From a virus (Duplodnaviria > Heunggongvirae > Uroviricota > Caudoviricetes), in IMG/VR virus record IMGVR_UViG_2711768018_000012: 6,704 nucleotides of DNA; one strand, 5' to 3'. How positions within the stretch are numbered: position 1 is the stretch's first letter; the number at the start of each line of letters is the position of its first letter. Shown here piece after piece: positions 3,001 through 6,000 of the stretch. The position numbers are program-made.

Positions 3001-6000
3001 CAGAGCAAAAGTACGGCGGAATCTGCAGCAACGCGCGCTGAGACAGCGGCAAAACGGGCAGAGGATATTGCATCCGCCGTGGCGCTTGAGGATGCGAGCA
3101 CGACGAAAAAGGGGATAGTACAGCTCAGTAGTGCGACTAACAGCACTTCCGAGTCACTGGCGGCAACACCAAAAGCCGTTAAGGCCGCGTATGACCTGGC
3201 TAACGGGAAATACACCGNNNNNNNNNNNNNNNNNNNNNNNNNNNNNNNNNNNNNNNNNNNNNNNNNNNNNNNNNNNNNNNNNNNNNNNNNNNNNNNNNNN
3301 NNNNNNNNNNNNNNNNNNNNNNNNNNNNNNNNNNNNNNNNNNNNNNNNNNNNNNNNNNNNNNNNNNNNNNNNNNNNNNNNNNNNNNNNNNNNNNNNNNNN
3401 NNNNNNNNNNNNNNNNNNNNNNNNNNNNNNNNNNNNNNNNNNNNNNNNNNNNNNNNNNNNNNNNNNNNNNNNNNNNNNNNNNNNNNNNNNNNNNNNNNNN
3501 NNNNNNNNNNNNNNNNNNNNNNNNNNNNNNNNNNNNNNNNNNNNNNNNNNNNNNNNNNNNNNNNNNNNNNNNNNNNNNNNNNNNNNNNNNNNNNNNNNNN
3601 NNNNNNNNNNNNNNNNNNNNNNNNNNNNNNNNNNNNNNNNNNNNNNNNNNNNNNNNNNNNNNNNNNNNNNNNNNNNNNNNNNNNNNNNNNNNNNNNNNNN
3701 NNNNNNNNNNNNNNNNNNNNNNNNNNNNNNNNNNNNNNNNNNNNNNNNNNNNNNNNNNNGTGGCTGGATTCTCAGGGAGCATTTAACCATCCATACTGGA
3801 TGTGCAAGGGTTCCTGGTCTTATGGCAATAATAAAATCATTACTGATACTGGCTGCGGTAATATTCATCTCGCCGGAGCTGTCATTGAAGTAATGGGGAT
3901 AAAGTCAGCGATGACGATCCGCATTACCACTCCGACCACATCCAGCGGTGGCGGAACAACCAACGCCCAGTTTACCTATATTAATCACGGAACAGATTAT
4001 TCACCTGGCTGGCGAAGGGACTATAACTCCAGAAATAAGCCAACGGCATCAGAGATCGGGGCGCTACCGTCAGGTGGAACAGCAGTATCATCAGTTAATC
4101 TGGCTTCAAAAGGTCGGGTAGCCGCGCTGACAGACAATACGCAGGGGGCAGCAGGTCTTGAGTTATACGAGGTGTATAACAACGGATATCCAACAGCGTA
4201 TGGAAATATCATTCACCTGAAAGGGATGACAGCCGTTGGCGAAGGTGAGTTACTCATCGGCTGGAGTGGTACAAGCGGTGCTCATGCTCCGGCATTTATT
4301 CGTTCACGACGGGATACGACCGACGCAAACTGGTCGCCGTGGGCGCAGCTTTACACCTCGGCTCATCCTCCTGCAGAGTTTTATCCAGTCGGTGCACCAA
4401 TCCCGTGGCCATCAGATACCGTTCCGTCTGGTTATGCCCTGATGCAGGGGCAGACTTTTGACAAATCTGCTTACCCGAAACTTGCAGCCGCTTATCCGTC
4501 AGGCGTGATCCCTGATATGCGTGGCTGGACGATTAAGGGCAAGCCCGCCAGTGGTCGTGCCGTATTGTCTCAGGAACAGGATGGCATTAAATCGCACACC
4601 CACAGCGCCAGCGCATCCAGTACGGATTTGGGGACGAAAACCACATCGTCGTTTGATTACGGCACTAAATCCACGAATAACACCGGGGCGCATACGCACA
4701 GTCTGAGCGGCTCTACAAGTTCAGCTGGGGCCCACCAACATAGTCAGACTGGGCCCAGAACGAATAGCGGGAGTCAACCTACTGGAATGTTTCCGGCAGG
4801 GAGTACTCAAGTTAGCGGGACTAATCAGGTTGGTATCAGTGGCTCATTAACCAGTGGCACCTCCCAATGGGTAGGTAAATCATCTTCAGAAGGAAACCAT
4901 ACACACTCACTGTCCGGCACAGCAGCATCTGCGGGTGCACACGCGCATACTGTCGGTATTGGTGCTCATACGCACTCTGTTGCGATTGGTTCACATGGAC
5001 ACACCATCACCGTTAACGCTGCTGGTAACGCGGAAAACACCGTCAAAAACATCGCATTTAACTATATTGTGAGGCTCGCATAATGGCATTCAGAATGAGT
5101 GAACAAGCACGGACCATAAAAATTTATAACCTGCTGGCCGGAACTAATGAATTTATTGGTGAAGGTGACGCATATATTCCGCCTCNNNNNNNNNNNNNNN
5201 NNNNNNNNNNNNNNNNNNNNNNNNNNNNNNNNNNNNNNNNNNNNNNNNNNNNNNNNNNNNNNNNNNNNNNNNNNNNNNNNNNNNNNNNNNNNNNNNNNNN
5301 NNNNNNNNNNNNNNNNNNNNNNNNNNNNNNNNNNNNNNNNNNNNNNNNNNNNNNNNNNNNNNNNNNNNNNNNNNNNNNNNNNNNNNNNNNNNNNNNNNNN
5401 NNNNNNNNNNNNNNNNNNNNNNNNNNNNNNNNNNNNNNNNNNNNNNNNNNNNNNNNNNNNNNNNNNNNNNNNNNNNNNNNNNNNNNNNNNNNNNNNNNNN
5501 NNNNNNNNNNNNNNNNNNNNNNNNNNNNNNNNNNNNNNNNNNNNNNNNNNNNNNNNNNNNNNNNNNNNNNNNNNNNNNNNNNNNNNNNNNNNNNNNNNNN
5601 NNNNNNNNNNNNNNNNNNNNNNNNNNNNNNNNNNNNNNNNNNNNNNNNNAGAAAAACTGTTCCGGATCCGGGAGGCGGAAGAAACAAAAAACAGCCTGAT
5701 GCAGGTAGCCAGTGAGCATATAGCGCCGCTTCAGGATGCTGTGGATCTGGAGATCGCAACGGAGAAAGAAACCTTGTTGCTGGAAGCTTGGAAAAAGTAT
5801 CGGGTGTTGCTGAACCGTGTTGATACATCAACTGCACCGGATATTGAATGGCCAGTAGCACCTATAGGGTAAATTCGTAATGATTACCTAAATACGTTAT
5901 TCTTTTGTTAAAAAAGTGATTTTGCTATAGGTAGGGAGTATGTTCTTGGATTAAGAATAAAAAATCGCCATGAAAGAGCTTCATGGCGAGTACATAAACG

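Follow-up and report, generated by a model that had tools for sequence, protein, structure and literature searches.

The 6,704-nucleotide (nt) stretch of viral DNA analyzed here (IMG/VR record IMGVR_UViG_2711768018_000012, Caudoviricetes; in the following "the window") carries a side tail fibre gene, stf, that is interrupted by assembly gaps and whose last visible piece encodes a series of His-x-His motifs. An earlier note on this DNA had contrasted the distal domain with the lambda-type N-terminus and shaft of the same protein, and had taken it for a needle of the T4 gp37 type acquired by exchange of the receptor-binding tip. This raises the question of whether Stf is a mosaic with a foreign tip or an ordinary member of the lambda family. 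Based on Pfam matches for J, Lom, Stf and Tfa, the genes in the window follow the order J - lom - stf - tfa, which is that of lambda and was also found in four related loci examined. The segment very probably represents the distal part of stf of a lambda-like Escherichia coli prophage, encoding a tip of the lambda/gp37 type, followed by the cognate chaperone gene tfa (Table 1).

The sequence from 3761 to 5083 translates to 440 residues and a stop codon. It harbors exactly seven His-x-His motifs (SHTHS, AHTHS, AHQHS, NHTHS, AHAHT, AHTHS and SHGHT), all of which had been listed before. Their first histidines are located at residues 279, 311, 325, 380, 394, 403 and 412, corresponding to nt 4595..5002, and the C-terminal end of Stf reads [15 protein letters not shown]. 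When the 440 residues were shuffled 100,000 times, a mean of 0.86 and a maximum of 6 His-x-His motifs were obtained, and seven were never reached; with shuffling restricted to the last 234 residues, the mean was 0.77 and the maximum again 6. As the observed number exceeds that in every shuffle, it is not a product of chance. Residues 207-440 match residues 28-242 of the crystal structure of the T4 gp37 tip (2XGF_A) with an E-value of 5e-83 in a phmmer search against PDB. The stretch aligning with the start of this match is nearly identical to lambda orf-314 and was recognized as a collar domain by Pfam family PF07484 on residues 211-258 (E 2.6e-12; 46.9 bits at a cut-off of 24 bits). In a multiple alignment the seven motifs share their columns with the seven motifs of T4 gp37, and the spacings between them are equal in both proteins (32, 14, the loop, 14, 9 and 9 residues). 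From SHGHT to the C-terminus the protein is identical to lambda, and its last 20 residues differ from those of T4 gp37 at three positions. The proposed gp37-type architecture, a collar followed by a His-x-His needle, is thus supported by comparison of sequences.

However, these motifs do not distinguish the distal domain from lambda. In lambda PaPa, Stf is read as orf-401 plus orf-314, and orf-314, lambda's own Stf C-terminus, contains eight His-x-His motifs and ends in the same residues. The tip scaffold, i.e. the tip without its head loop, shares 164 of 183 residues (90%) with lambda, 146 of 182 (80%) with T4 and 81% with phage slur14, and identities to other E. coli Stf proteins amount to 96-97%. 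Lambda (Ur-lambda) shares with the window the gene order, an Ala/Ser-rich shaft, the type of collar and needle scaffold, the C-terminus and a closely similar Tfa. Differences comprise a nine-residue unit that gives lambda its eighth motif, an additional 10-residue SFDYGTK repeat in lambda, a head loop of 45 instead of 52 residues and the mid-fibre region before the collar, where lambda has no counterpart to that of the window. T4 gp37 and gp38 share with the window the layout of collar, needle and head, the seven motifs and a related chaperone gene directly downstream, but the head loop of T4 gp37 comprises only 34 residues, and gp37 is otherwise unrelated, also in the way it is attached to the virion. 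The homology between the tips of lambda Stf and T4 gp37 has long been established, according to a passage of PMC12617516 that cites Montag 1989 and Hendrix & Duda 1992. In T4 gp37 the His-x-His motifs are reported to hold seven iron ions and to be conserved in lambda too (PMC11705849). Ur-lambda Stf resembles the gp37 tip and binds OmpC (PMC12617516), and functional exchange of the parts is likewise established (PMC12617516, PMC9659904).

The pairing of fibre and chaperone had been questioned in the earlier note because the N-terminus of Tfa appeared lambda-like. This description of Tfa is accurate, as both visible ends of the protein are 97% identical to lambda Tfa. The 34 residues encoded by the 5' piece are in addition 100% identical to Tfa of E. 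coli SCU-111, and the 3' end belongs to Pfam family Caudo_TAP (PF02413, E 5e-31) and aligns closely with the lambda and SCU-111 proteins. The overlap of the stf stop and the tfa start codon (TAATG) also occurs in lambda. Furthermore, 3842 of 5426 (71%) complete E. coli genomes contain the stretch that links the last four motifs to tfa in contiguous form, with a median of two needle-to-tfa junctions per genome. T4 gp38 shows 35% identity to lambda Tfa over the first 34 residues. It has been reported that lambda Tfa is a relative of gp38 and that a chaperone gene of the gp38/Tfa type lies directly downstream in every family member examined (PMC9659904). Because lambda's Stf carries the same tip, fibre and chaperone are an ordinary cognate pair without mismatch.

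The proximal part of the fibre is of the lambda type as well, in agreement with the earlier assignment of its first 88 codons and shaft. The N-terminus (1998..2261) matches Pfam family PF08400, prophage tail fibre N-terminal, with an E-value of 6e-49 and is 93% identical to residues 1-88 of lambda Stf. Residues 1-94 of the SCU-111 Stf match PDB entry 9E7M, in which the chain is named "Tail fiber protein"; this is an entry of the Ur-lambda tail tip complex (PMC12617516). For the Ala/Ser-rich shaft (2266..3216), identities amount to 51-55% with the shaft of lambda and to 96-98% with those of E. coli SCU-111, E. coli 200164 and phage PhiR68_2. No Pfam family match was obtained for the shaft, and Tandem Repeats Finder reported zero arrays within 1990..5100; the shaft is repetitive in composition, not in tandem at that threshold. 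Long open reading frames (ORFs) in other frames or on the minus strand also extend over the shaft (for example 2205..2960 and 2306..3073 on the minus strand, 2270..3118 on the plus strand). These off-frame and antisense ORFs (2205..3118) are taken to be by-products of GC-rich Ala/Ser coding. A comparable antisense ORF, orf206b, is annotated over the shaft of lambda.

The continuity of stf across the gaps was assessed by comparison with complete genomes. At the single "n" in position 2263, window position 2262 corresponds to position 3363 of reference locus L001 and window position 2265 to position 3650; two further reference loci (L002 and L006) show the same gap, and filling it puts the N-terminal piece and the shaft in one frame. 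The run of 542 Ns takes the place of 146 nt in SCU-111 but of 256 nt in strain 200164, and this hidden stretch differs between the E. coli prophage relatives in sequence as well as in length. By arithmetic, a fill of 256 nt between 3218 and 3759 places shaft and distal piece in the same frame. The interval of the 464-N run is 256 nt long in all three references, and tfa then comprises 582 nt and is in frame. The N runs were also considered as length-preserving masks. This was rejected, as tfa would then be 790 nt long and out of frame and the references give 256 instead of 464 nt. Since stf and tfa would each be brought into one frame by fills of reference length, the N runs are scaffold gaps, and their lengths are not reliable. 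In SCU-111, 200164, strain 104 and phage PhiR68_2 stf is a single ORF directly followed by tfa, encoding Stf proteins of 983, 1023, 1133 and 1025 residues, respectively. All 440 distal residues of the window are 99.1% identical to residues 544-983 of SCU-111 Stf (WP_071996362.1), with 100% identity over the tip, and for the Stf proteins of 200164, PhiR68_2 and mEp460 identity amounts to 89-91% in the distal piece and to 96-98% in the shaft. The best genome matches are colinear over all non-N sequence of 1900..5900.

Several other explanations of the locus were weighed against this evidence. The lambda-type fibre might have lost its own tip to a foreign one of the T4 gp37 type, which would make the lambda-like Tfa questionable as a chaperone. 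The strong match of the tip to 2XGF agrees with such a replacement, as does the head loop, whose nearest relative (59%) is found in the T4-like phage slur14. But lambda Stf possesses the same tip, with eight motifs, an identical C-terminus and 90% scaffold identity, which exceeds the 80-81% shared with T4 and slur14. In addition, 71% of complete E. coli genomes show this standard junction of needle and tfa, and the Tfa of lambda is also related to gp38. A foreign tip is therefore extremely improbable, and the modular exchange proposed earlier holds only on a finer scale. Compared with lambda, mid-fibre residues 1-206 and the 52-residue head loop differ, whereas the needle scaffold is of the lambda type.

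Some points weigh against the interpretation of the segment as an ordinary lambda-like stf-tfa locus. The stf pieces (starting at 1998, 2257 and 3761) lie in three frames and are not readable as one ORF. A single-sequence monomer model of tip residues 206-440, one chain of an intertwined trimer, was unusable, with a mean predicted local distance difference test (pLDDT) of 40 and a predicted template modelling score (pTM) of 0.14. Finally, the frameshift in lom and the IS1 element downstream of tfa suggest that the prophage may be decaying. If the frame changes at position 2263 and at the N run were real lesions, stf would be a dead gene and no fibre would be made; the truncation of lom by an 83-bp deletion and the location of IS1 about 750 nt downstream of tfa would fit this picture. 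The gap lengths, however, carry no frame information, as demonstrated by tfa (464 Ns versus 256 nt in three references), and each visible piece is uninterrupted and 94-99% identical in DNA to intact genes. We therefore regard a dead gene as unlikely. It is also conceivable that the contig from 3760 to 5185 stems from a different lambdoid prophage in this genome and that scaffolding positioned it here across the N gaps. There are three gaps within 3 kb, and E. coli genomes contain a median of three places similar to this locus and two needle-tfa junctions. Moreover, the end of the shaft (3196..3217) is of the 200164 type, while the distal piece is nearest to SCU-111 (99%, versus 91% for 200164). 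Yet SCU-111, 200164, strain 104 and phage PhiR68_2 all show the same order of N-terminus, shaft, Mu S'-like module, tip and tfa, the colinearity of the best matches spans the gaps, and the reference-length fills would restore a single frame in both genes. Even a misplaced contig would still encode the same kind of Stf. An artefact of this kind thus has little probability. A mis-join, which the earlier note had named as a finding that would refute its reading, appears unlikely, as these pieces belong to a single ORF in complete genomes.

Table 1. Features of the window from J to the left end of IS1A.
Feature	Position (nt)	Strand	Remarks
J, C-terminal part	up to 1346		Pfam Phage_Tail_Tip and Ig_GpJ_C
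lom	1417..1899		Pfam Ail_Lom
stf 5' end, N-terminal tail-attachment domain (88 codons)	1998..2261	+	PF08400, E 6e-49
Single "n", assembly join within stf	2263..2263		stands for ~286 nt (~96 codons)
Ala/Ser/Thr-rich Stf shaft	2266..3217	+	96-98% identity to E. coli/phage Stf shafts
Run of 542 Ns, assembly gap within stf	3218..3759		length unreliable
Mid-fibre module A, distal residues 1-100	3761..4060	+	related to Mu S' variable part
Mid-fibre module B, distal residues 101-206	4061..4378	+	resembles other prophage tail fibres
Collar domain of receptor-binding tip, distal residues 207-278	4379..4594	+	PF07484
Needle part 1, motifs 1-3 (SHTHS, AHTHS, AHQHS)	4595..4741	+	gp37 register
Hypervariable head loop, 52 residues (distal 328-379), presumed receptor-contact region	4742..4897	+	
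Needle return part, motifs 4-7 (NHTHS, AHAHT, AHTHS, SHGHT), conserved C-terminus, stop	4898..5083	+	
tfa 5' end, start codon overlapping stf stop (TAATG)	5083..5185	+	
Run of 464 Ns, assembly gap within tfa	5186..5649		stands for 256 nt
tfa 3' end, C-terminal half of tail fibre assembly chaperone	5650..5872	+	PF02413
IS1A left end, preceded by an AT-rich stretch	about 6620..6704 (window end)		

The mid-fibre region, distal residues 1-206, is without match in lambda Stf and consists of two modules. In module A, 76 of 100 residues are identical to residues 69-168 of Mu gp52, the variable part of S', and distal residues 1-136 match PDB 8JU3 with an E-value of 4e-50. This 100-residue module is all that Mu S' (variable part in G(-) orientation; 8JU3) has in common with the window; neither the tip of Mu S' nor the chaperone U' resembles the window tip. 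Mu S, encoded in the G(+) orientation, was rejected as a source of the module, as only the variable part of S' gave a significant match. Nor does the fibre belong to the Mu S'/P2 H type, since the match is limited to residues 1-100 and tip and chaperone are of the lambda/T4 type. Stretches similar to module B occur in tail fibres of Gifsy-1, Gifsy-2, Fels-1 and phage JL22, and a search for Pfam families in this module gave no match. A phage tail protein gene located beside nohA in E. coli CM5, 8FA and similar laboratory strains matches nucleotides 4122..4375 with 100% identity. The mid-fibre module is present at no less than 80% of its length in about 800 genomes.

The head loop, which separates motifs 3 and 4, is the most divergent part of the tip. 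Its identity amounts to 29% with the lambda loop and, depending on the alignment, to 15-24% with that of T4 (5 of 34 loop positions identical). Among sequenced phages its nearest relative is the loop of slur14 gp37, with 30 of 51 positions identical (59%) and a length of 53 versus 52 residues. This gp37 of slur14 (Tequatrovirus slur03) belongs to the long tail fibre of a lytic myovirus and has eight His-x-His motifs. The scaffold flanking these related loops is lambda-type in the window and T4-type in slur14. This pattern suggests that the two fibre lineages exchanged only the loop. The T4 residues needed for binding of lipopolysaccharide (LPS) and OmpC lie between motifs 3 and 4, and most of the residues on the list in PMC6957217 are not aligned as identities in the window loop. 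An allele at least 99% identical to this loop was detected in only 24 of the 5426 complete E. coli genomes. As a lambda-like scaffold is combined with a different and rare head loop, receptor specificity may differ from that of lambda. One might go further and propose that the loop marks a specificity other than the OmpC/LPS binding of lambda and T4 and has passed, as a cassette delimited by His-x-His motifs, between temperate and lytic phages; we consider this proposal rather doubtful. Loop exchange within the family has already been described in principle, so that only the specificity would be new if the proposal were true.

Other head-loop alleles are present in PhiR68_2 and strain 104. The latter shares with the window the flanks, the needle scaffold and the IS1 junction but harbors a different mid-fibre module and a different head loop, which indicates that cassettes vary on a fixed backbone. 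Such a mosaic pattern is known behaviour of this fibre family. For cassette exchanges of this kind, recombination at the conserved His boxes has been proposed. In PhiR68_2, tfa is followed by a gene for a PinQ/PinR-type serine recombinase and a short second tail fibre assembly gene (5984..6574 and 8397..8582 of reference locus L004), which suggests an invertible fibre segment or its remnant. Neither a recombinase gene nor a second assembly gene of the PhiR68_2 type was found downstream of tfa in the window.

The 2XGF structure and the work on T4 and lambda allow a model of how such a fibre would operate. A passage of PMC9659904 that cites the 2XGF paper describes the gp37 needle as three chains that intertwine in an antiparallel beta structure of six strands and carry a head at the distal end. 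By analogy, the N-terminal domain of the trimeric Stf would join the collar around the tail, and the three chains of the tip would wind around one another to form a needle of six strands. This needle would hold one iron ion at each of seven levels, bound by both histidines of one motif in all three chains. The chain would turn at the far end of the needle, where the head loop is expected to contact an outer-membrane receptor, which in T4 and Ur-lambda is OmpC and/or the LPS core. Tfa, as a relative of T4 gp38, would aid trimerization of the tip.

The genes adjoining stf and tfa were also inspected. The C-terminal receptor-binding domain of J (about 900..1343) is well diverged from lambda J, with 57% identity over the last 447 residues, whereas the preceding part is nearly identical. 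The J DNA forms a continuous 95% alignment with strain 104, and 890..1328 is without match in SCU-111. Judged by this divergence, the specificity of the central fibre may also differ from lambda's binding to LamB. The lom gene is cut to 160 residues by a frameshifting deletion of 83 bp between two CTGGCG repeats (junction at 1888..1893). Lom of SCU-111 has 199 residues and ends in the usual strand (...GVGYKF), which is lost in the window. The deletion may be genuine, in a prophage undergoing decay, or may have arisen as an error of assembly. Within the 3' half of tfa, the Rfam family IS009 (RF02111), a candidate small RNA, was matched at 5634..5832 on the plus strand with 187 bits (gathering score 117); the first 16 positions of this match fall into the N run. 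At least 80% of the region from the end of tfa across the IS1 junction (5873..6704) is covered in 280 complete E. coli genomes, with 99.5% identity in the best matches. The prophage of strain 104 adjoins ybhB-bioA, the bio side of the lambda attachment site.

The fold of the tip, its metal-binding motifs, the pairing with the chaperone and the mosaic evolution of the fibre family are already established, and a nearly identical protein is annotated in complete E. coli genomes. The feature is thus ordinary and of little discovery value in itself. The locus illustrates how N gaps of arbitrary length and one "n" can make an ordinary gene look like unrelated parts joined together. Tips of this type nevertheless determine the strains to which a phage or a lambda-based delivery particle can adsorb, and the rare head-loop allele on a lambda-compatible scaffold is a ready candidate for the engineering of chimeric Stf proteins.

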